IMG/VR virus record: IMGVR_UViG_3300046820_001270 | Span: 32,001-96,000 of that record | Direction: 5' to 3' (one strand) | Origin: a virus | Lineage: Duplodnaviria; Caudoviricetes | Length of the DNA stretch: 64,000 bases | Shown here: positions 4,661 to 41,670 of the stretch, one piece after another | How positions within the stretch are numbered: position 1 is the stretch's first letter | Layout of the letters: each line of letters starts with the position of its first letter | The notes under the pieces: generated by a model | Database searches by the model: none | What the model saw: the letters and a program-made list of their open reading frames with translations, nothing else | What the model was told of the DNA's origin: nothing | Program-made: the position numbers and the translations under genes

Positions 4661-5070
4661 TAAAGGAGTTATTACAAAATGAGATGTTTGTTCAAAAATT
4701 GGAAACAATTGCTGAAGAAATTAATTTAATAAAAGAAAATAAAGGTGATTTTAGTTTTTTTGTCCCCAAATTTATTATAAACATGGAAGGATTATTAAAA
4801 ATGTTCCATCCTAATGGATCAAATACATTTGATTACGCATCTAAATTTGAATCAACAAAAGAAGAGAAGATAAGATTACAGGAGGAAAAAAAACAACATT
4901 ACGAAACAATTGCAAGTGCGATGGAATTATATAAAAGAATTGAAGTAATTGATGCTAACATATCATATATTGAAAATGATATATCTGATTCAGAATGGAA
5001 AGTATGGAAGGAAGGTCATGAAGGTATCGCGTTTGATAAAGTAAAAAAATATTTAAATAAAAACAATTAA
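4657..5070 (+). CDS. Hypothetical protein (helical/coiled-coil)
   Basis: 137-aa ORF coupled by ATGA overlap within the operon. Confidence 0.6.
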   Translation: MIKELLQNEMFVQKLETIAEEINLIKENKGDFSFFVPKFIINMEGLLKMFHPNGSNTFDYASKFESTKEEKIRLQEEKKQHYETIASAMELYKRIEVIDANISYIENDISDSEWKVWKEGHEGIAFDKVKKYLNKNN

Positions 5071-5071
5071 A

Positions 5072-5311
5072 ATGGAAAATAAGAAAGAATTAACAACAGA
5101 AGAAAGAGGAGTACAAGCATTAGAGAGTATTGCAAATTCTGCAAGAGACATAAGTGATTGGGTTTATTCTTTAAATACGGAATCGTGGTCTGAAAGACTT
5201 GAGTGGTATTTAAATGAATTTTACTTATTAGCAAAGGCTAAAACAATCGGATCATCAAATAGACCAACAAAAGAATATGAAGAAGAAACTGGCGATAGTA
5301 GTCCCTTATAG
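5072..5311 (+). CDS. Hypothetical protein
   Basis: 79-aa ORF filling the gap between operon genes. Confidence 0.55.
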   Translation: MENKKELTTEERGVQALESIANSARDISDWVYSLNTESWSERLEWYLNEFYLLAKAKTIGSSNRPTKEYEEETGDSSPL

Positions 5312-14103: not shown

Positions 14104-15332
14104 TGGAAAAACAAAATGTTTTTTGTGTATTACCTTGGATACACTTAGCAACACATCCAATAGGAACAGTTACTCCTTGTTGTATCACTGACATGACTAA
14201 CGCCATATCAACGGCAGCTAAAGAGCATGATCCCGCACAACATTTATTCTTAAGTAGAGATACTTTAGACGATATTACTAATTCAGTTAGATTTAATCAA
14301 GTTCGTAAAGAAATGATGAACGGAGAATTCCCTAAAATTTGTCAGAAGTGTTATAAGTACGATCAAGGAGGAGTTAAGTCAAAAAGAATTGAATCAAATG
14401 AAAAATTTAAAGAATACATTGACCAATGTTTTGCTAACACCAACCCTGACGGATCACTTAAAGAAGTAAATTACAAATATATTGAATTGAGATTAGGGAC
14501 TGTATGTAATTTAAAATGTGTTACATGTAATCCATTTTCATCAAATAGATGGAATCAAGATTTACATATTTTTGAAGGAACAGAATTTGAAAAAGATTAT
14601 TTCAAAGTAGATATTAAAACTGAGTGGTTTAGAGATCATAATTTTTATGACGAACTATACAGTAAGAGTAATGGTTTAAAAGAAATATGGATTAATGGAG
14701 GAGAACCAACATTAATTAAGGAACATAGTTATTTTTTAGAGAAGTTTGTTAATGACGGAACGAGTAAAGATATCGATTTACATTATAGTTTAAATTGCAC
14801 TCAATTTCCCAATAAATTTATTGAAATATGGAAGAATTTTAATAAAGTAAGGATACAACTATCTATCGATGACTTAGGGGATAGAAATACATATATTAGA
14901 TATCCGTCCGATTGGAACGTTATCTATGACTCATTTCAAAAAATATTACAATATAAAAATGATTTTGATTTAGAAGTATGTCAAACTGTTAGTGTTTTAA
15001 ACGTAATGAATATAGATAATTTTAAAAAGTTTACCTTAGATCACGATATTATGGTTTCACATAATTTTGTTCATTATCCATCTCATTTACAAGTTAATTT
15101 AATTCCTGAAGAGTATAAAGAAAAATTATTAAATGATTTAAAATATTTGAGAATAGACGAGGTAGAAAGGTTAAAAATTGAACTGTTTAAACCACATGAT
15201 CAAGATGATGTAATAAAATTTTATAATTTCACCAGTTTATTAGATTCAAGTAGGAATATTGAAATAGGAGATCATTTAGAAGAATGGAAAATCCCATTTG
15301 ATGATTATATTAGTAAAGGAATAATTTTTTAA
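14103..15332 (+). CDS. Radical SAM enzyme (twitch/SPASM-like)
   Basis: CNLKCVTC, INGGEP, CVLPW..PCC..CQKC. Confidence 0.9.
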   Translation: MEKQNVFCVLPWIHLATHPIGTVTPCCITDMTNAISTAAKEHDPAQHLFLSRDTLDDITNSVRFNQVRKEMMNGEFPKICQKCYKYDQGGVKSKRIESNEKFKEYIDQCFANTNPDGSLKEVNYKYIELRLGTVCNLKCVTCNPFSSNRWNQDLHIFEGTEFEKDYFKVDIKTEWFRDHNFYDELYSKSNGLKEIWINGGEPTLIKEHSYFLEKFVNDGTSKDIDLHYSLNCTQFPNKFIEIWKNFNKVRIQLSIDDLGDRNTYIRYPSDWNVIYDSFQKILQYKNDFDLEVCQTVSVLNVMNIDNFKKFTLDHDIMVSHNFVHYPSHLQVNLIPEEYKEKLLNDLKYLRIDEVERLKIELFKPHDQDDVIKFYNFTSLLDSSRNIEIGDHLEEWKIPFDDYISKGIIF

Positions 15333-18888: not shown

Positions 18889-19655
18889 TAAAAAAATTAA
18901 TGATTTGTGGAGATAGTTATGCATCAGGAATTGGATTAGATGAAAGTTATAATTTAGAAAAATCTTTTGGAGGTTTAATTTCTGAAAAATTAAGTATACC
19001 CTCAATAAATTACTCACGAGCAGGTATTTGTAATTTTGGAATATTTTTACAAGTTAAAAAATCTATTGAGGATAATAAAAATGATTTAGATAAATCATTA
19101 GTTATTATTTCATTAACACAATCTAGTAGATTAATGATTGCTTCCGAAAATATAACATCTGAGGATTTGGATTTATCAAATGTTGATTACATTAATAATC
19201 GACCATTTTCATATAGTGAAAAAAGAAAAAGAGACGTACCATTTATATTAAACAAAAGTCCTAAATTATTTAGCCAAACTATTTTAGATGTATTGGCACA
19301 TTTAAATAATAAAGTGTCGGGTGCAATGGAAGATGCTTATAAGATTTTACCAAAATATAAAATTGAAACATTAGGACAATATATACAAGATGTTTACTCC
19401 GATCCAATAAAAGATGAATATGACGTGGCTTTGGTTGCAAGAACACATCTATTATTAAAGATGAACAATATTAAACACATATTTTTAGGATCTCCAAGAA
19501 GTAAATTTGATTTTGTACCTGATGAAAATTTTTGTGAAGTAAATTGGAGAGAAATATCGGATAAATATCCAGACGAAATAGGATCAAGTCATTGTAATGA
19601 ATTTGGCCACGAAATGGTAAGAGATTTAATTTTAAAAAAAATATCAAATGAATAA
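18885..19655 (+). CDS. SGNH hydrolase-like protein
   Basis: ICGDSYASG, GICNFGI, SHCNEFGH. Confidence 0.7.
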   Translation: MIKKLMICGDSYASGIGLDESYNLEKSFGGLISEKLSIPSINYSRAGICNFGIFLQVKKSIEDNKNDLDKSLVIISLTQSSRLMIASENITSEDLDLSNVDYINNRPFSYSEKRKRDVPFILNKSPKLFSQTILDVLAHLNNKVSGAMEDAYKILPKYKIETLGQYIQDVYSDPIKDEYDVALVARTHLLLKMNNIKHIFLGSPRSKFDFVPDENFCEVNWREISDKYPDEIGSSHCNEFGHEMVRDLILKKISNE

Positions 19656-20835
19656 AGACACATTCTGCATAATGACGTACAAAGGTTTATTCGTTGAACC
19701 TACAAAACATGTGAAACCATGTTGTGTATTCAAAGATTTTGAAACCCCGTTAATATATGATGAAAATAAAACATTTGATGAAATGTTTAATTCCCCTCAA
19801 TTTATTGAATTAAGAGAAAAAATGGACAATGGTATTGTTCATAGTGGTTGTGTAAATTGTTTTAATGGCACTATTAACCATAGAGAGGGTATGAACATTA
19901 TGTTTTTTGGTAACGACTATGAAAAACTTAAAGAATTAAATATAAGTGAAGATTATAAATCGGACGAGATTCTTTATTTAGATTTAAGAATTTCCAATTT
20001 ATGTAATTTTAAATGTAGAATGTGTAATGCAACATATTCTTCCTCATGGGAAGACGAAATGAAACAAATTGAACCTAATTTTATATCTGAACCGAAATGT
20101 GGACATAATTGGATTAATCCTATTGTAGATAAAATAGATAAGATAAAATATCTTTATTTAGCAGGAGGAGAACCTTTAATAATGAAGGAAACATTTCAAT
20201 TATTAAAGTTAATAGAAAATAGAAAAAATGAAATTACATTATTTTTAAATACTAATTTGTCAAATTTAGAGTATAAAAAAATAGATGTTATTAATGAAAT
20301 AATAGAATTTAATAAAATACATTTATTTGTATCTTGTGATGGGTTTGGAGAAGTCGGTGAATACCAAAGAACAGGATTTAATACGGAAAAGTTTAAAACT
20401 AATTTAAAGACATTACTAAGTAGGATTAATAACTTAGATAAAATAAAATTAGATATAATTTATGCGTTAAGTTCAATAAATGTCTATAACCTGTTTAATT
20501 TTATGAAAGAACTAAAGGAAGAATTTAATTTAGGAGATGAAGTTATTAATTTTCAGTTTGTTAGTTCACCATGGTATTTTAGTGTGGCATCTATGGATGA
20601 AACACATAAAAAAGATGTGGTAAGTTTTATAAAAGATAATTATCATTTTTGTAATGAAAAAACTAAAAATCAATTAGATAATTTTATATATTTTGTCGAA
20701 AACAATAAAGACAACATAACCACATATCAAAAAGAAAAAGACTATGAATTCTTAAAAAAATTAGATATATTTAGAAATACAAATATAAATGAGGTTTCAC
20801 CTTGGATTTTTAAAAGTATTTTTAATGAGTTATAA
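19648..20835 (+). CDS. Radical SAM enzyme (twitch/SPASM-like)
   Basis: CNFKCRMC, LAGGEP, N-terminal FC..PCC..CVNC. Confidence 0.9.
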   Translation: MNKDTFCIMTYKGLFVEPTKHVKPCCVFKDFETPLIYDENKTFDEMFNSPQFIELREKMDNGIVHSGCVNCFNGTINHREGMNIMFFGNDYEKLKELNISEDYKSDEILYLDLRISNLCNFKCRMCNATYSSSWEDEMKQIEPNFISEPKCGHNWINPIVDKIDKIKYLYLAGGEPLIMKETFQLLKLIENRKNEITLFLNTNLSNLEYKKIDVINEIIEFNKIHLFVSCDGFGEVGEYQRTGFNTEKFKTNLKTLLSRINNLDKIKLDIIYALSSINVYNLFNFMKELKEEFNLGDEVINFQFVSSPWYFSVASMDETHKKDVVSFIKDNYHFCNEKTKNQLDNFIYFVENNKDNITTYQKEKDYEFLKKLDIFRNTNINEVSPWIFKSIFNEL

Positions 20836-22578: not shown

Positions 22579-23802
22579 ATGAATATATATAAAAAAACGG
22601 CACCCGATAATCATTTTGTGGTCGAGTATTATTTGGAAGCAAAAACATCATTAAAAGATGCGGCTTGGAACATCGCTATAGGACAGAGTATAGGAAATCC
22701 AAATAATCGAAGTATTTGGGAAACTGAAGAAATGTATGAAAATCACATTTGTTTTATACTCGAAGATGAGGATTACTTAAAATCACATAAAAATGGTATT
22801 GTAAAAATTTCATTTCCACTTTCAAACATTAATTTAGAAGAAGACGGAATTTCACAAATTTTATGTCACATTGCTGGAGGACAAGTTGATATCTTAGAAA
22901 TTCAAAAATGTCATGTTTTAAATATTGAATTACCTGAAGATGTTGAAAACTCATTTAAATTAAAACCAGCATACGGTATAGACGGATTTAGAAAATTAAA
23001 TGGTGTTTACGAAAAACCATTTTTAGGTGGGATCATTAAACCAAAAGTTGGTATGTCACCGGAAGTGTTATTAGAAGTGGTAAAAGAAATGGTCAACGGA
23101 GGGGTTAATTTTATCAAAGAAGACGAGTTATTAGGAAACCCAAATCACTGTCCATTAGAACAAAGAGTACCACTTATTACAAAATGGTTAAAAGAAAATG
23201 CTCCTGATGTGATATATTGTTTTTGTATTAATGGAGATAGTCCATATGCATTACAAAGAGCCCAATTTGTGGTGGATAATGGGGGTAATGGTATTCATAT
23301 AAACGTTTGGAGTGGATTAGGTGTGTACCGAGCAATCAGGAAACAAAACCCAAATTTATGGATACATTTTCAAAAAAGTGGTGATAAATTTTTCACAGAT
23401 AAAAGAGCACCGTTTCACATATATTGGCCCGTGATTTGTAAAATTGCAGGATGGTCTGGTGTAGATTCAATTCATGCGGGTATGATTGGTGGGTATATGA
23501 ATCAGGATGAAGAAGAATTAAAAGACACTTTAAAAATGTTATGGAAATACAATATTGTTCCAGCTCTAAGTTGTGGTATGCATCCAGGATTAGTACAATA
23601 TGTTAATGAATCTTTAAAAAGTTTTGATTGGATGGCAAATGTCGGTGGAGCAATGCATGCACATCCGATGGGAACTTTGGGAGGAGGAATTGCCATGAAA
23701 CAAGCAATAAATAAAAACTTTGACGGACAAGAATTCAAAATTGCAACTGAGAAATGGGGCAATAAAGAGTTTAACCCAGATTTGGCTTATCGATATTTTT
23801 AA
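22579..23802 (+). CDS. RuBisCO-like protein (form IV, RLP)
   Basis: GIIKPKVG (K175/K177 equivalents), IKEDE (KxDE), IHAG, SCG, GGAMHAHP; loop-6 Lys absent. Confidence 0.9.
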   Translation: MNIYKKTAPDNHFVVEYYLEAKTSLKDAAWNIAIGQSIGNPNNRSIWETEEMYENHICFILEDEDYLKSHKNGIVKISFPLSNINLEEDGISQILCHIAGGQVDILEIQKCHVLNIELPEDVENSFKLKPAYGIDGFRKLNGVYEKPFLGGIIKPKVGMSPEVLLEVVKEMVNGGVNFIKEDELLGNPNHCPLEQRVPLITKWLKENAPDVIYCFCINGDSPYALQRAQFVVDNGGNGIHINVWSGLGVYRAIRKQNPNLWIHFQKSGDKFFTDKRAPFHIYWPVICKIAGWSGVDSIHAGMIGGYMNQDEEELKDTLKMLWKYNIVPALSCGMHPGLVQYVNESLKSFDWMANVGGAMHAHPMGTLGGGIAMKQAINKNFDGQEFKIATEKWGNKEFNPDLAYRYF

Positions 23803-28579: not shown

Positions 28580-29821
28580 ATGAAAGTTACAATTATAGGT
28601 GGAGGAACTGCCGGTTGGTTATCGGGTTTATATTTTAATTCTCAGGGATATGAAGATATTACAATTATAGATAGTTCCAAAGTTGGAATATTAGGTGCGG
28701 GAGAGGCATCTACACCAAATTTAAATGGATTATTATTAAATTTAGGAATTGATAAGATTGATTTTTTAAAAACAACCGGAGCAACCATAAAGGTATCGAA
28801 TGATTTTATAAATTGGTCTCCCTTCGGAGGTAAATACGAAAACCCATTCGGTCACCCCAATAGATTAAAAGAAGAAAATGATAATACATATGGTTATCAT
28901 TTTGATGCGAGAGAATGTGCTAAGTATTTTAAAAATATAGGAATTAATAGAGGAATAAAACATTTAGATGTTAATATTACACATTTTACTCAAAATGAAA
29001 ACGGAGATATTACCAATATTCATACCGAAGAAAAAATAAACATTGAAACAGAATTTGTTATCGATTGTAGTGGTTTTGGTAGATTATGTATCGGTAAATT
29101 ATATAATAGTAAATGGAAATCGTATTCGGAATATTTGAAGGCTAACTGTGCAATTGCATATTTTCTACCACAGGATAGAGTATTGACAGAAAATTCTAAA
29201 ACACATACCCAATCCATTGCTATGAAAAACGGATGGATGTGGCAAGCACCACTACAACATAGATGGGGATGTGGATATGTGTTTAATGATACTTACATTA
29301 CAAATGAAGAGGCTAAAAAAGAAGTTGAAGATTACTTGGGTAGAGAAATTGAAATTGTTAAAACTTTCAAATTTGATGCTGGTGGGTATGAAGAAACATG
29401 GATTAATAATTGTGTTGCACTTGGGTTATCTAGCGGATTTTTAGAACCATTAGAAGGAACATCGTTAATGTCCGTTATATGGTCTTTAAATAAATTAAGT
29501 GATATTAGGTTAGAAAATTGTAATTTTGAAAATAGAAAATTATATAATGAATATGTTAATAATGTAAATTATCAATCTATGTTGTTTGTTAGACATCATT
29601 ATAATTGTGGTCGAACTGATACTAAATTTTGGAGAGATATAAATAATACTAAATTACCATCAGATTTAATTAAAATACTTAGAAGTTTAGAAAAGAATAT
29701 TGAAGACGATTCATTGATTTATATTACAAGTAAAAAAGATGGATTACCAATATTTGGTAAAAATCATTATCAAATAGTTGATTTGGGTCATAAATCAAAA
29801 ACAATAAAAACATTTTTATAA
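28580..29821 (+). CDS. Tryptophan halogenase (PrnA/RebH)-family flavoprotein
   Basis: IIGGGTAGW, GAGEAST, IDCSG, GWMWQAP (WxWxIP-like), FLEPLEGTS. Confidence 0.85.
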   Translation: MKVTIIGGGTAGWLSGLYFNSQGYEDITIIDSSKVGILGAGEASTPNLNGLLLNLGIDKIDFLKTTGATIKVSNDFINWSPFGGKYENPFGHPNRLKEENDNTYGYHFDARECAKYFKNIGINRGIKHLDVNITHFTQNENGDITNIHTEEKINIETEFVIDCSGFGRLCIGKLYNSKWKSYSEYLKANCAIAYFLPQDRVLTENSKTHTQSIAMKNGWMWQAPLQHRWGCGYVFNDTYITNEEAKKEVEDYLGREIEIVKTFKFDAGGYEETWINNCVALGLSSGFLEPLEGTSLMSVIWSLNKLSDIRLENCNFENRKLYNEYVNNVNYQSMLFVRHHYNCGRTDTKFWRDINNTKLPSDLIKILRSLEKNIEDDSLIYITSKKDGLPIFGKNHYQIVDLGHKSKTIKTFL

Positions 29822-30334: not shown

Positions 30335-30937
30335 ATGATTGAAGAAATAAAATTAAATGATAATACTAATATCTATAAATCAAAAATAAAAATTACCGAT
30401 AAAAATAAATTGATATCGGATATAAAACTTAATTTAGATATTTCCATAAATTCAAAAAATTCAACCCCCACCGAACCTGGTATCCAATCAACTATTGTAA
30501 TATCAACACCTTCCATACGAGAATTAAATGAAAAAATAATAGATGTATTATTTAAAAATTCTAAGATAGATATAAATACACCATATATCACAAATCAATG
30601 GGTTTATATTAGTGATAAGAAGAATACATATTATGGATTTCATTCCCACGATAAGAAAAATCACACAAACATACCGTTACAATGGACATATACTTATTAT
30701 GTCCAAATGCCAAATAATTTAGTTGGGGATGATGGTAAATTAGTTTTTAAATTAGATAATGATACTACACATTCCATATTGCCTGAAGTTGGTGATTTAC
30801 TTATATTTCCCACAACATTATTACATGCACCAATGACTAATACTAATTCGGAAATAGAAAGAATTGTATTTGCTGGAGTTTGGAGTTATATTGACACAAC
30901 AATTCAAATTAGAAAAAAAAATAAAACATTATTATAA
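30335..30937 (+). CDS. Putative 2OG-Fe(II) oxygenase
   Basis: HSHD, YYV, GDLLIFP..LLHA..ERIVFA. Confidence 0.8.
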   Translation: MIEEIKLNDNTNIYKSKIKITDKNKLISDIKLNLDISINSKNSTPTEPGIQSTIVISTPSIRELNEKIIDVLFKNSKIDINTPYITNQWVYISDKKNTYYGFHSHDKKNHTNIPLQWTYTYYVQMPNNLVGDDGKLVFKLDNDTTHSILPEVGDLLIFPTTLLHAPMTNTNSEIERIVFAGVWSYIDTTIQIRKKNKTLL

Positions 30938-30938
30938 T

Positions 30939-31226
30939 ATGTTAAATTTTAAAGAAATATTTACATCTTGGGCGAAACTTTCAAATCCAACAGAACAAGA
31001 GGAACGATTAGCTAAAATTAGATTTTCAATATGTGAAGGTTGTCAATATAAGAAAGAGATTATTAAGACAAAGAAGTGGTCGTTATTATGTGGAAAATGT
31101 GGATGTCCTATACGGGCAAAAGTTTTTTCAGATCAGATTAATCCGTGTCCTATGGGATATTGGAAAGATATCGATAAAAATTTTGGATTAGATATTGATG
31201 AAAAGAATAAAAAATCAATAATTTAA
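30939..31226 (+). CDS. Cys-rich small protein (DUF6171-like)
   Basis: R..ICEGC..CGKCGCP..K..CPMGYW; start moved to ATG 30939. Confidence 0.7.
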   Translation: MLNFKEIFTSWAKLSNPTEQEERLAKIRFSICEGCQYKKEIIKTKKWSLLCGKCGCPIRAKVFSDQINPCPMGYWKDIDKNFGLDIDEKNKKSII

Positions 31227-31292: not shown

Positions 31293-31348
31293 GAGAACAA
31301 TTACTAAAAATAAACTATTTATCAAATAACATAAATAATATAAAGAAT

Positions 31349-32863
31349 ATGAAAGGTACAATTATTGGGACGGACTTATTAGAATTTAACAATTCGGTAA
31401 AAATTTTAGAAATAAACACAAATACAACTATCTTCAACAGTGCAGTTGATTTGTTAGATTATACATTATTTTTTGAAATGTTAGTTAATAATAATATTAA
31501 CGAATTACATTTTATTTATAATGAGTCGGATGCGTATATAAATGATACCGATACAATGCTTTTTTTATTTGAAGAAAGATTAAAAACAAAATGTATTGAG
31601 AATGGTATCACATATTTTGATTACAAAGTACCAGCTAATTCTGTAACTGTACCGTTTATTGAAGATGCTAATAATAAATTTATTTTAAGACAGGCATTTG
31701 ATACGACTGCGTTGGTAGATGAAACATATTGTGCAGATAAATTTGAATTTTTTAATTTAATGAAAGATTCACAATATATTCCAAAAACATATATAAATAA
31801 TGGTACTGAATTATCTTTTGACACCTTTAATACTATAAGTAATTATACAAACGGTAGACCAAATTTAGTTAAAAAAGATAGATACCCAAGTTATGATTTT
31901 CATTTATATCCTGCTTTATCTAAATTAACTACCGATGTACAATTATCTCAATTAAAAACATCAGTAGATAATACCACGTTTTTGATACAAGAATTTATTT
32001 ATGATGATGCTAATATAGTAAATAATAGATGGAATGTTATCAGAAGTATTGATATATTATATGGTGGTGAATTAGATGTTTTAAATATGGGATCATATAA
32101 AACATCCGTATTTGTTGATGTAGATGCGTGGGCGGATGAATATGAATCAGATGGTACTACACTCACTAAAAAAAGTAGATATACATGGGTAAATAAGCCA
32201 GTGTACAATACAGGTGATTTTAATTATCATACAAATGGTGAATCATTAGTATTGGGTAGTGATGGGACATTATTAAATTTAAATAATTTACAAATCGGTA
32301 ACCCAATAGCGTCGGTTAATTTTACAGACGAAGACGGATTATCACCAAATTCATACGATGCAGATAGTTTTAGAACTCCACATAGACAATGGGGTAGTAC
32401 AATAGAACAAGCACAATCAACTTTAACTAATACCCCATCGGAAGTATTAGATATAACATCAAAAACAGTTTCAGAAATAATGTTAAAAATAACATTAGAA
32501 AATGGAGTTAGTTGGAATGAACCAAGAGATACAATTTACTTAATCCAAGCTGCAAATTCAAATGTTACTCATTTTGACAGATTAAATACGGTAGAAATTG
32601 GAGATAAAATGGTTACTTATAATAAAACTACATTAGAATTATCAACTTTAGTAATTACAGGGATTGAAATAGTATATGATGAGATCATCGGATACAATAT
32701 AAATATTCAACCATCGGATCTATTTTTAGTTGATGTAACTACCGATTTATTTGTGGTACAACATAATTATAGTTGTGACTTTTGCGGTTGGTACTCTTGT
32801 GGTGATTATTTTTGTAGCTATAACTGTCCTGGATGTAATCAAGGACTTCCCCCTAAAGTTTAA
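31349..32863 (+). CDS. Circularly permuted ATP-grasp + Hint (intein-like) domain + C-terminal six-Cys peptide
   Basis: GTDLL..ILEINTN at the N-terminus, then DKF..IPKT..LVKK..IQEFI; Hint blocks SLVL.SDG..LQIG, VEIGD, GYNINI..FLV, VQHN; tail YSCDFCGWYSCGDYFCSYNCPGCNQGLPPKV. Confidence 0.7.
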   Translation: MKGTIIGTDLLEFNNSVKILEINTNTTIFNSAVDLLDYTLFFEMLVNNNINELHFIYNESDAYINDTDTMLFLFEERLKTKCIENGITYFDYKVPANSVTVPFIEDANNKFILRQAFDTTALVDETYCADKFEFFNLMKDSQYIPKTYINNGTELSFDTFNTISNYTNGRPNLVKKDRYPSYDFHLYPALSKLTTDVQLSQLKTSVDNTTFLIQEFIYDDANIVNNRWNVIRSIDILYGGELDVLNMGSYKTSVFVDVDAWADEYESDGTTLTKKSRYTWVNKPVYNTGDFNYHTNGESLVLGSDGTLLNLNNLQIGNPIASVNFTDEDGLSPNSYDADSFRTPHRQWGSTIEQAQSTLTNTPSEVLDITSKTVSEIMLKITLENGVSWNEPRDTIYLIQAANSNVTHFDRLNTVEIGDKMVTYNKTTLELSTLVITGIEIVYDEIIGYNINIQPSDLFLVDVTTDLFVVQHNYSCDFCGWYSCGDYFCSYNCPGCNQGLPPKV

Positions 32864-32890: not shown

Positions 32891-33034
32891 ATGCAAGAAT
32901 TACCTTTAACGAAATTAGAAAGACCAAATCAACACATTAAGGTTCAAATCAATTCACTTTCAACTGATTTAAAAAATAAAGTTAAAGTTGCGGTTCAAGA
33001 AGTTGTAACTAAGATTAAAGAAAAACATCTTTAA
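32891..33034 (+). CDS. 47-aa hypothetical protein (not in the ORF track)
   Basis: Hand translation MQELPLTKLERPNQHIKVQINSLSTDLKNKVKVAVQEVVTKIKEKHL; A-rich leader; fills the intergenic gap. Confidence 0.6.
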   Translation: MQELPLTKLERPNQHIKVQINSLSTDLKNKVKVAVQEVVTKIKEKHL

Positions 33035-33048
33035 TATATTGATGCATT

Positions 33049-33891
33049 ATGAAATTATTTGCATTTGGTGATAGCTGGACTGCCGGCCAAGGCTGTAATT
33101 TAAAAGTAGAGAATAGTTTTACCGATGAAAATGAACGAAAGATATATAGAAATAGTATGTCTTGGCCTAAATATTTATCCGAACATTTAAATGTAGATTT
33201 TGAAAATTTAAGTAAATCTGGATCATCCAATAAAGAAATTTTTGACACTATTATTGAAACCATCAAATCGAACATCATAAAAGATAATGATTTGGTGGTT
33301 ATTATGTGGAGTTCGTCGTTAAGAGATAATACTCCCTTTTTTCCAAATGGAGAATGTCACATTTGGGGCAAAACTCATATAGAAAACAAATGGAAATTTA
33401 ATTGGATTATAAACTCAATTAGAAATTCAAAAGGAGAGTTAAAACACGAATCTGATTTAAAATATAATCATTTTTTAAAATCTTATAAACAATTTTACAT
33501 TGATGACTTATATAACGATTCATACTATAACATAGTAAATCAAAATTACATTCTATTCATTCAAAAATTATTAGAATCGTATAATATTAATTATGTTTTT
33601 TGTGATGCGTTTGATTTTATGATCACTAAAAACATAAAGATTGATTTAGATAAAACACATTTTATTAATAAATCCAATTATTATAAATTTGGAGAAGTAA
33701 CAGCTAAAGACTTTTTAATTTCATTAGACCCAACTGATTCGGATTTATGGGAGGACTCTTCAAAATGGACAAATATATCCGGAAAACACCCAAATGCAAA
33801 AGGATATCAAAAAATATCTGATGAATTATACGATTTTATAATAAAATCAAATATTATAAAAAAGAACAAATCAATAATTAAAATGTTATAA
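33049..33891 (+). CDS. SGNH hydrolase-like protein
   Basis: AFGDSWTAG, GSSNKEI, HPNAKGY. Confidence 0.75.
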   Translation: MKLFAFGDSWTAGQGCNLKVENSFTDENERKIYRNSMSWPKYLSEHLNVDFENLSKSGSSNKEIFDTIIETIKSNIIKDNDLVVIMWSSSLRDNTPFFPNGECHIWGKTHIENKWKFNWIINSIRNSKGELKHESDLKYNHFLKSYKQFYIDDLYNDSYYNIVNQNYILFIQKLLESYNINYVFCDAFDFMITKNIKIDLDKTHFINKSNYYKFGEVTAKDFLISLDPTDSDLWEDSSKWTNISGKHPNAKGYQKISDELYDFIIKSNIIKKNKSIIKML

Positions 33892-34436
33892 TGGAATTTT
33901 CAATAAATAAATTTTTTGACAAAGAAGAGTGTAATTCCATATTAGAATATGTGGATGGTATAGGTGTGCCATTTTCTTATAACCCAAACGAAACATGGGA
34001 TTGTAAAAGAATATATGATGAAAGTTTTAAAACGAATATTCTTAACAGATTAATATTGAATTACGAAAAAAATAAATTTAAATTATGGTTTGATTTAAAT
34101 GAGTTTGACATAAAAGATATTAATGTTAGTTTAACAAAATATTATGACGGTAGATGGTTAGATTTGCATTTAGACTCCACATCTCAATTCACATCTGTTA
34201 TAATATTAACAGATGAATTTGACGATGGTAGATTTGCATTGTCAAATACATATGAAGATATTAATAATACCGAAAAATATCATTTAGATATTGGACAATC
34301 AATATCATTTGACGGTAGTAAAATTTATCACGGAGTAATGCCAGTTAAAAAAGGTTTAAGATGTGCATTAAATATATGGACAACTAATACCGATTTTAAA
34401 TATAGACCTTTAAAAAATAATAAAAGTATTATATGA
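33891..34436 (+). CDS. 2OG-Fe(II) oxygenase
   Basis: HLD, FDDGRF, YHGVMPV.KGLR. Confidence 0.85.
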   Translation: MEFSINKFFDKEECNSILEYVDGIGVPFSYNPNETWDCKRIYDESFKTNILNRLILNYEKNKFKLWFDLNEFDIKDINVSLTKYYDGRWLDLHLDSTSQFTSVIILTDEFDDGRFALSNTYEDINNTEKYHLDIGQSISFDGSKIYHGVMPVKKGLRCALNIWTTNTDFKYRPLKNNKSII

Positions 34437-35086: not shown

Positions 35087-35607
35087 AAATTTTAATAATC
35101 GCATTACCAAGAACAGGTTCTACAAGTTTAGGGGAACTGCAGACCAAAAAACACAATATAAAAAAATATTTATTTGAACCATTTAATCCAAAAAATACTG
35201 AAAGATATAATTCTAACGAAAGTAATGTTGTAGTTAAAACACTTGTATTTCAAATTTTAGAGGACATTAAAGAAGAAAATAGAATTGAATGGTTGATAAA
35301 TTTAACAAAAGAATTTGATGAGGTTATTTTATTGACAAGAAAAGATTTAGTAGCTTGTGGAGAAAGTTGGGCGTATTTAAATTATTTTCACGAAACAAAA
35401 AAGTTTATGTATTATGAGAATTATTTATGGAAATCAACTCCATATGATACATCAGCATATAATCAAATACTTTCATTTAATGAAGATTTAAAATTTATTT
35501 CCAAAAGTATAAATGTACCTATAACATATTATGAAGATATTTTTGACATAAACGGAGAAGGAAGATTAAGAAAAGGTAATAGAACAAATACATTAAATAT
35601 TATATAA
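35083..35607 (+). CDS. Sulfotransferase-like P-loop protein
   Basis: ALPRTGSTS, FEPFN, LTRKD..ES, YYED. Confidence 0.7.
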   Translation: MKILIIALPRTGSTSLGELQTKKHNIKKYLFEPFNPKNTERYNSNESNVVVKTLVFQILEDIKEENRIEWLINLTKEFDEVILLTRKDLVACGESWAYLNYFHETKKFMYYENYLWKSTPYDTSAYNQILSFNEDLKFISKSINVPITYYEDIFDINGEGRLRKGNRTNTLNII

Positions 35608-36671
35608 TGATTAATTTAAATGAATATGTTTGTACCGTACCGTTTACATCAATGGAAATACATGATGAATCATATTTTCTTTGTTGTGCTAGTTGGTTAA
35701 CAAAATACTTACCGAAAAATCAGCCAATGGATGGTATGTGGAATTCGGAAGAATCTATTGATATAAGAAAATCGGTAATGGATGGAACATATCGTAATTG
35801 TGATAAAACACAATGTCCATATCTGTCACAGTTAATTAACTTAAATAATAAGAGTTTAGGACCTATTAAACATATAAATGAATTACCCGAAGACATAAAA
35901 AAATATGTAAACGAACAAAATGGTATTATGGAAACTGGACCGAAAATAGTTCACATGTCATTTGATAGAAGTTGTAATTTAAAATGTCCATCATGTAGAA
36001 TAGAATCTATAATGGCAAATGGTGAAAAATTAGAAAAAATAGATATAACAATTGAAAAAATGGAGGAGTTATATTCCAACTCGATTGAAACAATTTATTG
36101 TTCTGGGACGGCGGATCCATTTGCTTCTAAATCGTATAGAAATTATCTTAAAAATTTTAATTTTAAAAAATATCCAAATTTAAAATATATTCATCTACAT
36201 ACAAATGCAACTTTATGGGATGAGAAAATGTGGGAAGAAATGAAAAATATACATCCATATGTTAAAACTTGTGAAATAAGTATAGATGCCGCGAGAAAAG
36301 AAACATATGAAAATGTAACTAGATTAGGTGGAAATTGGGATAAATTAATATCAAATTTAAAATTTATATCAACAATAAAAAGTTTAACAAGTGTTAAGTG
36401 TTCATTTGTTGTTCAACAAAGCAATTATACCGAAATGACTGAATTTTTAGAACTAATACATGATATTTTTGGTATGAAAACAAAAGTGTTTTTTGGTAAA
36501 ATAACAAATTGGGGAACTTTTAGTGATGGACAATATAAATTATTAAAAGTGTGGGACAATAGTCATCCCGAGTTTAATCTATTTTTAGAAGAGTTTAAAA
36601 AAGTGGCATTAAATCCATTTGTATTTCATAATATGTATGAATTATTGGACAATAAAAAGTCTTTAATATAA
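35607..36671 (+). CDS. Radical SAM enzyme with N-terminal SPASM-like domain
   Basis: CNLKCPSC; CTVPF..LCC..C..CP; GTADPF replaces GGEP. Confidence 0.85.
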   Translation: MINLNEYVCTVPFTSMEIHDESYFLCCASWLTKYLPKNQPMDGMWNSEESIDIRKSVMDGTYRNCDKTQCPYLSQLINLNNKSLGPIKHINELPEDIKKYVNEQNGIMETGPKIVHMSFDRSCNLKCPSCRIESIMANGEKLEKIDITIEKMEELYSNSIETIYCSGTADPFASKSYRNYLKNFNFKKYPNLKYIHLHTNATLWDEKMWEEMKNIHPYVKTCEISIDAARKETYENVTRLGGNWDKLISNLKFISTIKSLTSVKCSFVVQQSNYTEMTEFLELIHDIFGMKTKVFFGKITNWGTFSDGQYKLLKVWDNSHPEFNLFLEEFKKVALNPFVFHNMYELLDNKKSLI

Positions 36672-36707: not shown

Positions 36708-39700
36708 ATGAAAATACTTGCACATACATGTTTTATCGGAGTCACAGGATATGCTAACCACGCAAAGTCCTTTTTTTGTGCTCTGAACAAATACCATACA
36801 GTTAAAGTTAGGAACTCAACAATCGGAAGTGGTTGGAAGGGGATGAATAACACACCTCACGATGATGAACCATATATCACCGATGAGATGAAGGATATGT
36901 TAATTCTACAAACCCTAATCAATGGTGATGGTAGTAGATCTCATTTACCTATGTATGGTTATAAGAATGATTTTAAACCTGATGTTCATATTGTATTGGT
37001 GGATATGAACAACTATTATTTTCACGAGAATTACGATGGATATAAGATAGCATATAACGTTTGGGAATCAACACGTTATCCGCAAGATTTCTTTAAAAGA
37101 TTAATGTACTTTGATGAAGTATGGGTACCAACACAATGGCAATTTGATTGTTTGGTTGAACAGGGTTATCCTAAGTCTAAAATATCAATAGTTCCTGAGG
37201 GAGTTGATGTGGGGACATTTAAACCATTAAGTAAGATACCAAAGAAGGACAAATTTAGGTTCTTACATTTTGGTAGATGGGATTATAGAAAAGGAACTAC
37301 AGAGGTTTTAAGGACATTTGGTGAGGTTTTTAAAGGTAGAACTGATGTTGAATTAATCGCGTCAGTTGAAAACCCATACGCGTATGACGGAATTAAAACA
37401 ACCGAAGAAAGAGTTAAGTACCATAATATTAACGACGAGAATATAAAGTTTATTAAGTTCACACCAAGAGAGGAATATGTGAAGTATCTACAAGAAGGTG
37501 ACGTGTTCGTTACTTGTGCCCGTAGTGAAGGGTGGAACTTACCGTTGATTGAATCGATGGCTTGCGGAACACCATCATTATATTCAAATTGGGGAGGTCA
37601 GTTAGAATTTGCGGAAGGTAACGGTGTTCCCGTTAAGATAGATGGTTTAAGACCCGCAAATGTAGAACATAAACATTTTCCTGGTGAATATTGTGAACCA
37701 GATTGGAAAGATTTGGGAGAACAAATGTTAAATGTAATGAATGATTATAAAAAGTTTAAATCATTCGCAATAGAAGAATCAAAAGAAATTCATATAGATT
37801 TCAATTGGGATAAAATAGCAAAAACAGCATCAAATATATTAATGGAAAAGAAAACAATTAGAGAAGATGATTTTTATAAATCAGGAAAATTCTACACAGA
37901 TGTAGATGTATTAGAAAATTTAGGAGACATTAAAGACTACCAAGGAGGAACACTTGAAGTGGCGAATAAGTTTGGTTGGCCAAGAGCAATATATCATGAG
38001 ATTTATAATTTAATGGATTACTATAAGCGTCCAAATAATGACAAAAGAATTTACGATGGTGATGTTGTTGTTGATTTAGGTGGGAATATAGGAATTTTTA
38101 ATAGATGGGCATATAGTCAAGGTGCGTCTAAAGTAATTTCATTTGAACCAGATAGAAGATATTTTGAACTATTATCTAAAAATGCAGATCCCCGTTCTAT
38201 TTTATATAATGGAGCCGTTGCCGACGAGGTTGGTGAGATGGTTCTTTCTGAAACAGGTCATCTCGGTGGATCTACATTACTTGAAACAGAAGAAATGACA
38301 AACACATACACAGTTAAAACATATACATTAAATTATTTGTTTGAAACTGGTGTAGTAAATAAAATAGATTTTTTAAAGATGGATATTGAAGGTGCCGAGC
38401 ATCATGCGTTTTTAGGAATATCAGATGAAAATTTATTAAAAGTTAGGAACATCTCAATGGAGTATCATCATAATTTATTGGGACACAATGTTGAACTGAG
38501 AGAAAGTTTAATTCAAAGAATGTCAAGATTAGGATTTAGTCATTATACTCTGTTTATGGGCGGAAACGATAATTTACAGATGTTATATTTTGAAAGAAAA
38601 GAAAAATCAATTAGAAAATCTAATATTCATTTTGTTGATGGTCCATTTGCTGAAGTGAACGAAGACGTGGAACATTTATACAATGTTCAATTTATTGATG
38701 GAGACACCGGTAAAATTGAATATGAAACGAATATCAAGAGTAATCATTGGACAAGAGCATCTAAAAAATATTATGTTAATTGGATTGTAAAAATTAAAGG
38801 TATTGATAATGATTTTTATAGAGAAGAGAAATTTAATCCACAAGGACAAAGAATTATGATTTGTTTTGAATCAAAATCGTTAGGTGATAGTTTAGCTTGG
38901 ATCCCATATGTAGAAGAATTTAGAGTTAAAAATAATTGCCAAGTTATTTGTTCAACATTTAAAAATGATTTATTTAAAGGACAATACCCTGAAATTGAGT
39001 TTGTTGAACCTGGAACGGGAGTTAATAATATATATGGTTTATTTAGATTGGGGTTATTTCAAGACGATGAAAGAAAAATAAAATATGATAAACACCCATC
39101 TAACCCAAGGGTAGAACCTTTAGGTAAAATGGCTTCAGACATATTAGGACTTGAATTTGAGGAGATAAGACCAAAATTACCAAAATTTAACAAAAAGAAA
39201 ACAAAGAGAGTTTGTATAGCCATACATTCAACTGCTCAGGCAAAATATTGGAATAATCCAATAGGATGGCAACAGGTTGTTACCCATTTAAAGAAAAAGG
39301 GATATGAAGTTAGATTATTATCAAGGGAAGAGGATGGTTATATGGGAAATAAAAATCCACAGGGTGTTAAACAACAAAAACCAGGACCGATTGAGAAAGT
39401 TATTGAAGTTCTAGAAGAATCTGAGTTGTTTATAGGTATTGGAAGTGGTTTAAGTTGGTTGGCATGGTCAGTAGGTGTACCATGTATTATTATATCGGGA
39501 TTTAGTGAAGAATATAGTGAACCTATGTCGGGAGTATCAAGACTTATTAATAAGGATGTGTGTCATGGATGTTGGAATGTATACGATTTTAATCCGGGGG
39601 ATTGGAATTGGTGCCCCGTTCATAAAGACACTAAACGACAATTCGAATGTTCAAAATCAATCAAAGGGGACGATGTAATAAAAGAAATCGAAAAACTTCT

Positions 39701-39710
39701 ACCAATTTAG
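36708..39710 (+). CDS. Three-domain fusion: GT4 + FkbM methyltransferase + autotransporter O-heptosyltransferase (Aah/TibC-like, GT-B)
   Basis: GT4: RWDYRKG, SEGWNLP.IESMACG. FkbM: VVDLGGNIG, SFEP, FLKMDIEGAE. TibC-like: SKSLGD..AW, STAQAKYW, GIGSGLSWLAW, CHGCW..WCP..FEC. Confidence 0.85.
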   Translation: MKILAHTCFIGVTGYANHAKSFFCALNKYHTVKVRNSTIGSGWKGMNNTPHDDEPYITDEMKDMLILQTLINGDGSRSHLPMYGYKNDFKPDVHIVLVDMNNYYFHENYDGYKIAYNVWESTRYPQDFFKRLMYFDEVWVPTQWQFDCLVEQGYPKSKISIVPEGVDVGTFKPLSKIPKKDKFRFLHFGRWDYRKGTTEVLRTFGEVFKGRTDVELIASVENPYAYDGIKTTEERVKYHNINDENIKFIKFTPREEYVKYLQEGDVFVTCARSEGWNLPLIESMACGTPSLYSNWGGQLEFAEGNGVPVKIDGLRPANVEHKHFPGEYCEPDWKDLGEQMLNVMNDYKKFKSFAIEESKEIHIDFNWDKIAKTASNILMEKKTIREDDFYKSGKFYTDVDVLENLGDIKDYQGGTLEVANKFGWPRAIYHEIYNLMDYYKRPNNDKRIYDGDVVVDLGGNIGIFNRWAYSQGASKVISFEPDRRYFELLSKNADPRSILYNGAVADEVGEMVLSETGHLGGSTLLETEEMTNTYTVKTYTLNYLFETGVVNKIDFLKMDIEGAEHHAFLGISDENLLKVRNISMEYHHNLLGHNVELRESLIQRMSRLGFSHYTLFMGGNDNLQMLYFERKEKSIRKSNIHFVDGPFAEVNEDVEHLYNVQFIDGDTGKIEYETNIKSNHWTRASKKYYVNWIVKIKGIDNDFYREEKFNPQGQRIMICFESKSLGDSLAWIPYVEEFRVKNNCQVICSTFKNDLFKGQYPEIEFVEPGTGVNNIYGLFRLGLFQDDERKIKYDKHPSNPRVEPLGKMASDILGLEFEEIRPKLPKFNKKKTKRVCIAIHSTAQAKYWNNPIGWQQVVTHLKKKGYEVRLLSREEDGYMGNKNPQGVKQQKPGPIEKVIEVLEESELFIGIGSGLSWLAWSVGVPCIIISGFSEEYSEPMSGVSRLINKDVCHGCWNVYDFNPGDWNWCPVHKDTKRQFECSKSIKGDDVIKEIEKLLPI

Positions 39711-39771
39711 AGATATTTTTTATTTAATTTGAAAATTCAAAGTATTTATATGAGTATAACAATATAACCAT

Positions 39772-41670
39772 ATGAAAATATTTGACGCAAACATCTCGGG
39801 ATCCCTAAACGTATCGGGCGCAGCTCGTTTCTTCGGTGATCTTACGGTAGACGGAACAATAAATGCTGCGATTAGTGGTACATCCACAAACGCACTATCC
39901 CTAAACACAACGGGTTCTGCTCGTTTCGCTACCACAGGTAGTAACCTATTCACAGCAAACCAAACAATTAGCGGATCTATAATCCCATCTGTTAATAATG
40001 CTTACGATTTGGGTGATGCGACACATTGGTGGAAGGACATCTATGTATCTACAGGATCTATCTTTATTGGTGGTATAAAAGCTATCAGTACAAACACTGA
40101 TGGTACAATCCAAATAGGTACTCAAGTTGTACAAACTTCAGCAAGTTTAGCATCAGTTGGTCTACCAGTTCCTCCAACAGGTTCTGCAGGATCAAGTCAA
40201 AGTACATTAGTAGGTAGTCAAAATATTACAGGTAGTCAATCTATCACTGGTAGTATGTCAGTAAGTGGTAGTATGGTTGTAACAGGTTCTTTATTTATTA
40301 ACGGAACCTCATATACTGCGGCTTCTTCAGGAACTTCAGGAACTTCAGGAACTTCAGGTTCTTCAGGTTCTAGTGGATCTAACGGTTCATCAGGAACTTC
40401 AGGATCTAACGGAACAAATGGTTCTTCAGGAACTAGTGGTTCTAACGGTACTGACGGTTCTTCAGGTTCTAACGGAACAAATGGTTCTTCAGGAACTAGT
40501 GGATCTAACGGAACAAATGGTTCTTCAGGAACTAGTGGATCTAACGGAACAAATGGTTCTTCAGGTACTTCAGTAACCGTTTCAGGTACAAACAATGTAC
40601 TTGGTAAATTCAGTTCAGGAACTATGGTTAACTCAACAATAACTGACGATGGTACGACAGTTACTATTGGAGGTAATTTAACGGTTAATGGTACAACCAC
40701 TTCAGTCAATTCAAATACAGTTAATATTGGTGACAATATTTTAATTCTTAATTCAGATGAAGCGGGTGTTCCATCACAAAATGGTGGTATTGAAATTGAA
40801 AGAGGAACATCTACAAACGCAAGTTTAATATGGGACGAAACAACTGATGTGTGGGAAGTTGGTTTAGCGGGTGCTGAACTTGAAATTGCAACCATTAGTG
40901 GAACACAAACACTTACTAACAAAACAATAAATGGTTCACAATTAGTTGACTTGTCGGTTGCAAATGGTAAATTGACAAACTCATCAGTAACCGTTTCAGC
41001 AGGAACGGGTATGAGTGGAGGTGGTGCGGTATCATTAGGTGGTACTGTAACATTAACAAATGCGGGTGTAACGTCAATCACAACAAATACAGGTTTAAGT
41101 TCAAACGTAAGTGCGACAGGTGCGGTTACAATCACAAATACAATAACCAATAATAACCAATTAACCAATGGTGCTGGATATCTTACAACGGCTGTAACTT
41201 CAGCGGTTGGAGGTACGGGTGTTGGTGTGAGTTCGGGAACAGGAGCGGTTACATTCTCAATCGGTCAAGCGGTTGCAACATCATCAAACGTTCAATTTAA
41301 CTCATTGGGTGTAGGAACGGCAGGTCCTGGAACAACAGGTTTAATCAGAGCAACAAATGACGTTATCGCTTACTTCTCATCAGATGAGAGATTAAAGGAA
41401 AACTTTGAAAATATCCCTAATTCTTTAGATAAGTTAAAACAAATTAACGGTTATTCATTTGATTGGATCCCTATGGAAGGTATTCACGAAAATGAAGGTC
41501 ACGATATCGGTGTTAAAGCACAAGAAATTGAAGCTGTTTTACCTGAAATTGTTACAACAAGAGAAAACGGATATAAGGCGGTTAAATATGATAAATTAGT
41601 TGCTTTATTGATTGAAACAAATAAAGAATTATTAAATCGTATTGAAGCTTTAGAAGCTAAAATAAAATAA
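39772..41670 (+). CDS. Tail/head fibre protein with Gly-X-Y Ser/Thr repeat and C-terminal intramolecular chaperone (peptidase S74)
   Basis: SSDERLKEN..GYSFDW..GVKAQE..V.Y..L.ALLIE plus terminal coiled coil; long G/S/T-rich shaft. Confidence 0.9.
   Translation: MKIFDANISGSLNVSGAARFFGDLTVDGTINAAISGTSTNALSLNTTGSARFATTGSNLFTANQTISGSIIPSVNNAYDLGDATHWWKDIYVSTGSIFIGGIKAISTNTDGTIQIGTQVVQTSASLASVGLPVPPTGSAGSSQSTLVGSQNITGSQSITGSMSVSGSMVVTGSLFINGTSYTAASSGTSGTSGTSGSSGSSGSNGSSGTSGSNGTNGSSGTSGSNGTDGSSGSNGTNGSSGTSGSNGTNGSSGTSGSNGTNGSSGTSVTVSGTNNVLGKFSSGTMVNSTITDDGTTVTIGGNLTVNGTTTSVNSNTVNIGDNILILNSDEAGVPSQNGGIEIERGTSTNASLIWDETTDVWEVGLAGAELEIATISGTQTLTNKTINGSQLVDLSVANGKLTNSSVTVSAGTGMSGGGAVSLGGTVTLTNAGVTSITTNTGLSSNVSATGAVTITNTITNNNQLTNGAGYLTTAVTSAVGGTGVGVSSGTGAVTFSIGQAVATSSNVQFNSLGVGTAGPGTTGLIRATNDVIAYFSSDERLKENFENIPNSLDKLKQINGYSFDWIPMEGIHENEGHDIGVKAQEIEAVLPEIVTTRENGYKAVKYDKLVALLIETNKELLNRIEALEAKIK
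40327..40569 (+). repeat. Coding tandem repeat: 27 consecutive X-Gly-Y triplets, higher-order 36-nt unit GSNGTNGSSGTS
   Basis: Repeated ggatctaacggaacaaatggttcttcaggaactagt units read directly from the sequence. Confidence 0.9.

Follow-up and report, generated by a model that had tools for sequence, protein, structure and literature searches.

Architecture and distribution of the protein

The stretch of viral DNA analysed here, which we refer to as the window, spans 64,000 nucleotides (positions 32,001 to 96,000 of IMG/VR record IMGVR_UViG_3300046820_001270, Duplodnaviria; Caudoviricetes). It has a GC content of about 28%, and its genes, mostly co-directional, include phage-type functions such as a collagen/S74 fibre-like gene and a peptidoglycan hydrolase. 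The subject of this study is a gene for a 504-residue protein in which an ATP-grasp ligase domain is followed by a Hint domain and a short tail with six cysteines. A preliminary description of the locus, made by reading the nucleotide sequence, had proposed this three-part layout; we reproduced its open reading frame (ORF) and translation, and the layout itself was borne out by fold searches and conservation. The architecture is secure, and in the literature on ATP-grasp proteins combined with Hint or intein-like domains, phages or ribosomally synthesized and post-translationally modified peptides (RiPPs), we found no account of a ligase, a Hint domain and a cysteine tail in one chain. The features of the locus are collected in Table 1.

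Table 1. Features of the ligase-Hint locus, with positions in the window. AF2, AlphaFold2; GS, glutathione synthetase; 2OG, 2-oxoglutarate; SAM, S-adenosylmethionine; P4H, prolyl 4-hydroxylase.
Feature	Position	Strand	Basis
Whole gene, 504-residue ATP-grasp/Hint/Cys-tail protein (P0001)	31349..32863	+	ORF translation, homologs, AF2 model
ATP-grasp ligase domain of GspS/YgiC/eukaryotic-GS type, residues 1-290	31349..32218	+	VIA-align fold matches
D9 ... E21-x-N23 hairpin, predicted Mg2+/ATP-binding triad	31373..31417	+	Conservation, GspS spacing
Hint fold without position-1 nucleophile and block-B TxxH, residues 291-473	32219..32767	+	Two fold searches
H472-N473, terminal His-Asn, predicted Asn-cyclisation site (cut after N473)	32762..32767	+	Conservation
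31-residue tail, 3477.9 Da, Cys 476, 479, 484, 489, 493, 496	32768..32860	+	Translation, fixed Cys columns
47-residue basic protein (P0122), predicted second subunit	32891..33034	+	Synteny, complex prediction
95-residue Cys-rich protein (CxxC ... CxxCGC ... C), directly upstream	30939..31226	+	Conserved neighbour
Promoter-like motif, degenerate copy CTATTTATC of ATATTTATA	31315..31323	+	Differs from consensus at both ends
Flavin-dependent Trp-halogenase homolog	28580..29821	+	Pfam Trp_halogenase 2.6e-86; 50/83 loci
2OG-Fe(II) oxygenase-like protein	30335..30937	+	Weak Pfam match; family in 69/83 loci
GDSL/DUF6071 hydrolase-like protein, downstream	33049..33891	+	Family in 49/83 loci
2OG-Fe(II) oxygenase (P4H-like)	33891..34436	+	Family in 82/83 loci
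355-residue radical SAM protein	35607..36671	+	Best NCBIfam N_Twi_rSAM, below cut-off; conserved neighbour

A word-indexed search returned at least 560 close homologs of near-uniform length, and when 1.84 billion representatives were searched in full with a profile, 347 clusters at 50% identity emerged. The family has 153 matches in IMG/VR, on viral contigs that reach a length of 334 kb, and its members carry the label Uroviricota. A collection of 185,579 species genomes, searched with the close alignment as the query, yielded a single match, on a 5-kb contig (L089, JABJFP010000318.1) that is binned as a Methanobacteriota metagenome-assembled genome and is probably a mis-binned viral fragment. 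No match was obtained by tblastn against 50,697 deposited phage records, and the leads given by a protein language model were weak (0.78-0.81). The gene belongs to large, uncultured aquatic phages.

Conservation was measured in four samples: 66 distinct close genes for the His-Asn motif, the cysteine columns and the ratio of non-synonymous to synonymous substitution rates (dN/dS), and 89 diverse homologs, 240 aligned family proteins and 122 representative clusters for censuses of the family. Pooled Nei-Gojobori estimates reveal purifying selection on ligase, Hint domain and tail alike. With this selection acting throughout, and with the homologs and clusters listed above, the ORF is conserved far beyond chance. 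An AF2 model computed from the 89 diverse sequences has a mean predicted local distance difference test (pLDDT) score of 89.8 and a predicted TM-score of 0.84, residues 478-504 being its sole disordered part; it supersedes an earlier model from 25 sequences, in which the C-terminal half was resolved and the ligase domain was not.

The ligase domain

Judged by the AF2 model, residues 1-290 form an amide ligase with the ATP-grasp fold, of the type represented by GspS, YgiC and glutathione synthetases. When the model was compared with 48,161 representatives of the PDB using VIA-align, without Foldseek, residues 1-286 matched YgiC (7uka) with a Z-score of 10.1 over 201 residues (rmsd 3.9) and GspS (2io7) with 9.3, followed by glutathione synthetases from plant, trypanosome and yeast at 8.8-7.3 (3kaj 8.8, 2wyo 8.7) and by trypanothione synthetase (TryS) at 7.5. 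The alignments with YgiC, GspS and GS begin at the first residue of the model, which pairs with residue 310 of GspS; the classical ATP-grasp enzymes RimK, LysX, ArgX and TTLL reach about 6 (5.7-6.0 for the first three) and align from about residue 50 only. Neither the Pfam families GSP_synth and GSH_synth_ATP nor the NCBIfam profiles match the domain.

The preliminary description had drawn attention to an N-terminal GxD..LEIN motif ahead of DKF, LVKK and IQEF. All four were located in the translation: G7-x-D9 ... L20-E21-I22-N23 at the N-terminus, then residues 130-132, 173-176 and 213-216, respectively. Among the 89 diverse homologs, E21, N23 and R232 are kept in all, D9 and K176 in 88; R114 is invariant, and the column of K131 holds Lys or Asn. 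Read in the order D9-E21-N23-R114-K131-K176-R232, these positions spell DENRKKR in 177 and DENRNKR in 36 of the 240 aligned proteins. D9, E21 and N23 are spaced by 12 and 14 residues, exactly as D318, E330 and N332 in the R316-x-D318 ... E330-x-N332 motif of Escherichia coli GspS. Seven ATP/Mg residues of TryS are common to GspS (R328, D330, E344, N346, K513, K548 and R613), and D330, E344 and N346 coordinate Mg2+ (PMC2427367). Six of the seven find a counterpart here in the same order, namely D9, E21, N23, K131, K176 and R232.

These comparisons modify the proposal that the domain is circularly permuted. It had been noted correctly that the ExN strand comes first, the triad standing ahead of K131, K176 and R232. 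Since the D ... ExN, K, K, R order and its spacing match those of GspS, YgiC and eukaryotic GS, however, the permutation is not a new one: E. coli YgiC/YjfC, GspS (2io7), TryS and eukaryotic GS (3kaj, 2wyo, 1m0t) all carry the D ... ExN hairpin before two ATP lysines and an arginine. An ExN-first order is normal for this branch and permuted only relative to the classical ATP-grasp enzymes. What distinguishes the phage ligase is that it starts at the Mg hairpin, without everything that lies upstream of it in its relatives, where some 100-300 residues, including an amidase domain in the count, come first; it also lacks sequence-profile similarity to them and is fused to a Hint domain.

A predicted second subunit

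Immediately downstream lies an ORF of 47 codons, too short for the threshold of the ORF list. A homolog occupies the position directly 3' of the ligase-Hint gene in 82 of 83 loci, the sample used for all synteny counts, and ten residues are invariant, among them R11, P12, I16, K28, K30, A34, K43, H46 and L47. In complex predictions with the ligase-Hint protein, the 47-residue protein gave ipSAE scores of 0.86, 0.86 and 0.87, against 0.00 for the best control; when the prediction tool was calibrated, 58 of 80 solved complexes scored this high, as did 2 of 110 mismatched pairs. The pLDDT of the partner was 79-83, and at least 85% of the contacts agreed between runs.

The predicted contacts involve alternate residues of strands 2-13, 16-23, 227-238 and 243-253, in addition to the Hint domain, to which the partner forms a bridge. 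It would thus pack against the central sheet on the side that points away from the ATP site. The corresponding sheet of TryS covers a helix contributed by residues that precede the hairpin (PMC2427367). Because this helix fills the corresponding site in TryS and the phage protein is without the region that provides it, we infer that the 47-residue protein is a structural subunit, supplied in trans, which replaces the N-terminal-region helix of GspS and TryS and probably completes the ligase. A role as RiPP precursor or immunity protein was set aside, the protein being highly conserved, free of cysteine and a predicted binder of the ligase core.

The Hint domain

Residues 291-473, of which about 294-473 had been taken for a Hint domain beforehand, were recognised as such by both fold searches. 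Foldseek matched them to hedgehog (1at0/6tyy) with an E-value of 3e-7, a TM-score of 0.78 and a probability of 1.00. VIA-align returned more than 20 inteins, bacterial intein-like (BIL) domains and hedgehog at Z-scores of 15.3-12, the leading ones being BIL2 of Tetrahymena BUBL (6tmm, 15.3), the NpuDnaB intein (4o1r, 15.0), a Clostridium thermocellum BIL (2lwy, 14.9) and hedgehog (1at0, 14.5).

The catalytic residues of the domain are only partly preserved. The preliminary description, which placed a His at the block A nucleophile, no TxxH in block B and an intact terminal His-Asn, proved accurate on all three counts. Position 1 is His294, and across the 240 aligned proteins the residues at this position include H (147), K (22), G (17), L (12), I (10), S (8) and T (4), with C in none. 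The block B columns 389-396 hold no TxxH and display a conserved W389-x-(D/E)391 instead. Position 457 in block F is Asp in 57 and the canonical His in 20 of the 89 diverse homologs, of which 88 keep the terminal N473 and 85 the penultimate H472. The His-Asn pair occurs in 233 of the 240 aligned proteins, 66 of the 66 close genes and 115 of the 122 representative clusters. The Asn is replaced in one aligned protein only, which ends in a 7-residue stub; among the stub-tailed members, three of seven lack the His or the Asn. The residue after His-Asn is Tyr in the window and variable in the family (A 17, S 14, P 10, V 9, I 8, others), without a conserved nucleophile.

The Hint domain has therefore kept the C-terminal half of the catalytic apparatus alone, that is, the block F Asp or His, the penultimate His and the terminal Asn, the residues that cyclisation of the Asn requires, and despite the loss of Cys1 and TxxH, the His-Asn is under selection exactly at the end of the fold. 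The dN/dS of the domain, 0.089, lies close to that of the ligase domain, 0.107. Because there is neither a Cys at position 1 nor a TxxH, a C-terminal cut is the only one that could be expected. The Hint domains known so far cleave either on both sides or on the N-terminal side.

The phage domain shares the fold of inteins, BILs and hedgehog proteins, yet it falls outside the definition of all three. Without Cys1 and a Cys, Ser or Thr at the +1 position, it does not qualify, by its sequence, as an intein. BILs, its best structural matches, resemble it in sitting in non-essential, variable proteins rather than conserved host genes, and in ending in His-Asn without a +1 nucleophile, such that cleavage is expected over splicing; they do, however, have Cys or Ser at position 1 and perform N-terminal chemistry. 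The C-terminal domain of hedgehog is likewise the autoprocessing module of a two-part protein, but with Cys1 and TxxH it forms an N-terminal thioester and transfers cholesterol, with no terminal Asn chemistry, the reverse of what is seen here. Pretoxin Hint domains (PT-HINT, PF07591) are similar in preceding a variable C-terminal cargo that they presumably release; the phage domain differs in having no Pfam PT-HINT match, no toxin or trafficking domain, an enzyme at its N-terminus and a viral family around it.

The cysteine tail and other cargoes

The tail is indeed the 31-mer with six cysteines that had been described, with seven aromatic residues rather than six. It had been anticipated that the tail would be hypervariable among homologs; this is ruled out, as the six cysteine columns are fixed in the 66 close genes and the dN/dS is 0.212 for all positions and 0.310 for non-Cys positions, compared with 0.089-0.107 for the core. 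The tail evolves two to three times faster than the core, yet it is constrained. The other part of the expectation, that homologs would keep the ATP-grasp, the Hint domain and the His-Asn, agrees with the counts given above. The pairs C476-x2-C479 and C493-x2-C496 are conserved, and AF2 gives the tail no confident fold. A conserved C-terminal Lys as a functional handle was considered and rejected, since Lys is found among the last four residues in 67% of representatives and in 63% of background ORFs of these AT-rich loci.

In the 122 representative clusters, the sequence that follows the first Hint domain (Hint1) is a Cys-rich peptide in 90, a canonical Hint domain with Cys1 and TxxH in 22, a stub of at most 12 residues in seven and some other sequence in three; Cys-rich peptides of 20-150 residues are the dominant cargo across the family. 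The cargo behaves as a releasable module, swapped among Cys-rich peptide, canonical Hint domain and other sequence. In five relatives (P0124, P0126, P0128, P0129 and P0133), a Cys-rich peptide lies between the His-Asn of Hint1 and a canonical Cys1 Hint domain, and in two (P0029 and P0183), the Cys peptide is followed by an S74-like self-cleaving chaperone. The peptides bracketed in this way could be released autocatalytically at both ends, and self-cleaving modules on either side of the same peptide are the strongest indirect argument that release is intended.

The second Hint domains of relatives match Pfam PT-HINT. Four distant members (P0224, P0256, P0240 and P0259; L085) carry one or two canonical Cys1/TxxH/His-Asn Hint domains straight after Hint1, with linkers of 0-6 residues and 1-4 residues past the last domain. 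Having no +1 nucleophile, these extra domains appear to resemble A-type BILs and not inteins.

Genomic context

The genes around the ligase-Hint gene follow a conserved order: a 2OG oxygenase, the Trp halogenase, the 2OG-like protein, the 95-residue Cys-rich protein, the ligase-Hint gene and the 47-codon ORF, continued downstream by the GDSL/DUF6071 protein, a 2OG oxygenase, unknown proteins and the 355-residue radical SAM protein. This order is kept across relatives of 44-48% identity and in part around very distant ones, where the radical SAM gene again adjoins the family member. The Cys-rich protein is found in about 74 of the 83 loci, at a median distance of 53 nt before the ligase-Hint gene, and its cysteine pattern is fixed; it has no match in Pfam or NCBIfam and might be a further partner or serve in the handling of metals.

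The preliminary description had seen in the halogenase, 2OG oxygenases and radical SAM enzymes a set of tailoring enzymes that could mature a RiPP-like tail. Their presence is real and their synteny conserved; beyond synteny, maturation finds no support. The pairing of halogenase and 2OG oxygenase is also seen in T4-like pelagiphage HTVC008M, within its structural module, and in cyanomyoviruses, phages that have no ligase-Hint gene. The halogenases there are 31-39% identical to that of the window, and a halogenase specific to the ligase-Hint system is not supported. The window contains six radical SAM genes (7993-9375, 9947-11515, 11515-12756, 14103-15332, 19648-20835 and 35607-36671). They fit the N-terminal-twitch family, with N_Twi_rSAM or NF033640 as the best models. 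Full tests of 7993-9375 and 19648-20835 placed both above the NF033640 cut-off; a role as SPASM-type peptide maturases, which had been invoked, is not supported. The ATP-grasp domain of the phage protein is GspS-like and not of the RimK-like type that belongs to graspetides.

The island is rich in glycosyltransferases and N-twitch radical SAM enzymes and includes a carbamoyltransferase. Iyer et al. (2021) read the cyanophage counterpart of this island as a system for sugar or amino-acid metabolites or for capsule decoration (PMC7824862). The S-SSM6a-type cluster of that study comprises a carbamoyltransferase, a halogenase and 2OG oxygenases, the same classes as in the window; the phages concerned have no ligase-Hint homolog, and such a fusion goes unmentioned there. 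Their reading of the island, like the family of the radical SAM enzymes and the wider occurrence of the halogenase and 2OG pair, weakens a direct link between the neighbouring enzymes and the tail, on which these enzymes may or may not act.

In relatives, a promoter-like motif, ATATTTATA, is located 26-40 nt upstream of the start codon. Of 59 distinct loci, 44 have TATTTATA ahead of the gene, compared with 2% of other ORFs, whereas the T4-type late promoter TATAAATA, a distinct motif, was found in only five of the 59 upstream regions and was discarded. Further copies in the window are at 39743, 41715 and 25589/25613, among them an exact TATTTATA that stands 29 nt ahead of the collagen/S74 fibre-like gene, which suggests that this gene and the ligase-Hint gene are co-regulated. 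The ligase-Hint gene thus appears to have a conserved promoter-like element of its own, within an island of tailoring enzymes and beside a fibre-like gene.

Proposed function and alternatives

We favour, with a probability of roughly 55%, the interpretation that the protein processes itself and combines an enzyme of two subunits with a cargo. The ligase-Hint core would fold together with the 47-residue subunit, and Asn473 would cyclise to a succinimide, cutting the chain after residue 473, with neither N-terminal cleavage nor splicing by the Hint domain. A Cys- and aromatic-rich 31-mer of 3.48 kDa with a new alpha-amine would be set free beside a ligase-Hint core of 54 kDa. The ligase would then activate a carboxylate as acyl phosphate and couple it to an amine. 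The likeliest substrate would be the released peptide itself, which might be amidated at its C-terminus or closed head to tail, because GspS-type enzymes activate the C-terminal carboxylate of a peptide: in GspS and TryS this carboxylate is converted to an acyl phosphate, which is then attacked by an amine (PMC2427367).

The steps of this scheme are not equally firm. The proposed cleavage at N473 is well motivated, and the layout looks built to release a small Cys-rich peptide. The activity of the ligase domain is deduced by analogy with its structural relatives, and its substrate is a guess, which makes the choice of the released peptide the weakest step.

Several observations weigh against the interpretation as a whole. 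Neither domain is recognised by Pfam, PHROGs, NCBIfam or PDB-sequence profiles. The tail, with a pLDDT below 50, is left undocked by AF2, so that the model offers nothing to connect it with the active site of the ligase. Cyclisation of the Asn in classical inteins is slow if it is uncoupled from the N-terminal steps. The seventh GspS/TryS residue, R316 or R328, corresponds to Gly7 here, and position 7 is Gly in 67, Ala in 15 and Ser in five of the 89 diverse homologs; the invariant R114 might substitute for the missing Arg. Members with stubs of 5-7 residues or with tandem Hint domains only (P0224 and P0185) retain an intact ligase, which is why its main job may lie outside the Cys peptide. 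Finally, the CxxC ... CxxC spacing of the tail is also what would be expected of an attached zinc knuckle.

The last two points lead to the alternative that fares best, which we consider unlikely but possible. The chain would not be cut at all; the Hint domain would be structural or regulatory, the tail would be a zinc (or Fe-S) knuckle that stays in place, and the ATP-grasp domain would act on a small molecule or glycan of the island. A Hint domain without Cys1 and TxxH would suit such a role, as would the paired CxxC-type spacings, the six fixed cysteines and the purifying selection on the tail, and an enzyme of small molecules or glycans would be at home in an island where glycosyltransferases, N-twitch radical SAM enzymes and a carbamoyltransferase predominate, read as by Iyer et al. 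(PMC7824862). It is more difficult to see why an uncut protein would, in nearly all clusters, hold its His-Asn precisely where the fold ends while the other Hint catalytic residues drifted, why long Cys-rich sequence, canonical Hint domains and other sequence replace one another freely in the segment after it, or why a second self-cleaving module follows some tails.

Within the favoured interpretation, release of the peptide could be taken one step further, to a form that strikes us as rather improbable. The protein would represent a leader-protease-free phage peptide route, in which a one-sided Hint domain frees the alpha-amine of a six-Cys core and the ligase, with its 47-residue subunit, activates the C-terminal carboxylate, giving a knotted head-to-tail macrocycle of cyclotide size or a product coupled to an amine. 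Cyclotides have the size and the cysteine count of the phage tail (about 30 residues and six Cys); its cyclisation is pure conjecture. Relatives in which the peptide is bracketed by the His-Asn of Hint1 and a Cys1 Hint domain would reach the same activated C-terminus via a thioester. P0124 and P0129, with a Cys peptide of about 30 residues, follow the both-ends release order of split-intein circular ligation of peptides and proteins (SICLOPPS), and 5ol6 is among the fold matches; unlike in SICLOPPS, however, the two Hint domains of these relatives are separate, complete folds and not intein halves, and the window protein has no second one.

Release is also part of a scheme that resembles polymorphic toxins or bacteriocins, which we judge quite improbable. 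In this case a pretoxin-type Hint domain would free a variable Cys-rich effector, such as an antimicrobial, exclusion or signalling peptide, and the ligase would be a moonlighting or activating domain. The variation of the cargo, with Cys-rich peptides of 20-150 residues predominating, the faster evolution of the tail and the PT-HINT matches of second Hint domains are all in line with it. The protein, however, has no secretion or trafficking domain; the ORF downstream, where an immunity protein might be sought, is highly conserved irrespective of the type of tail, and its product is a predicted binder of the ligase core; a tail dN/dS of 0.2-0.3 is not that of diversifying selection; and members are met almost exclusively on viral contigs.

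That the Hint domain is a decayed, functionless selfish element, left by an intein or BIL that became fixed behind an ATP-grasp gene, with the tail as its old C-extein, is very unlikely: canonical BIL- or intein-like Hint domains do occur in the tails of some relatives, and phages are rich in inteins (PMC7824862), but this Hint domain occupies the same place in almost every full-length member, experiences purifying selection no weaker than that on the ligase, conserves its His-Asn and is contacted by the predicted 47-residue partner.

Other genes of the window

The protein encoded at 22579-23802 (+), within the phage island, resembles the large subunit of RuBisCO (Pfam RuBisCO_large, 9e-33) and has no tblastn match in the 50,697 phage records. 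Because its best NCBIfam score, 162 bits for rubisco_III, is far below the cut-off of 497 bits, we assign it to the divergent forms of RuBisCO akin to RuBisCO-like proteins. Three tandem genes at 3212-7936 (+) combine an animal-type beta-1,4-galactosyltransferase (GT7 N and C) with a laminin-G/ConA-like lectin domain. A gene at 36708-39710 (+) encodes a 1000-residue fusion of GT4, FkbM methyltransferase and GT9; it is followed at 39772-41670 (+) by the fibre-like protein, whose collagen repeats end in an S74 intramolecular chaperone and could be hydroxylated by the nearby P4H-like 2OG oxygenases.

Implications

If the favoured interpretation is correct, these phages hold a large, conserved family of Hint domains that have only the Asn-cyclisation half of the reaction, a natural Hint for C-terminal cleavage only. 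Such a domain would be useful for understanding how the half-reactions are uncoupled and as a tool for tag release. The predicted 47-residue subunit would be an example of a micro-ORF, below the usual calling thresholds, that completes the fold of an enzyme. The combination of a Hint domain, a GspS-type ligase and a six-Cys peptide suggests that these abundant, uncultured phages of aquatic habitats have an unrecognised route to small peptides. Candidate functions of the peptide, should it be released, are metal binding, manipulation of the host and exclusion of competitors.

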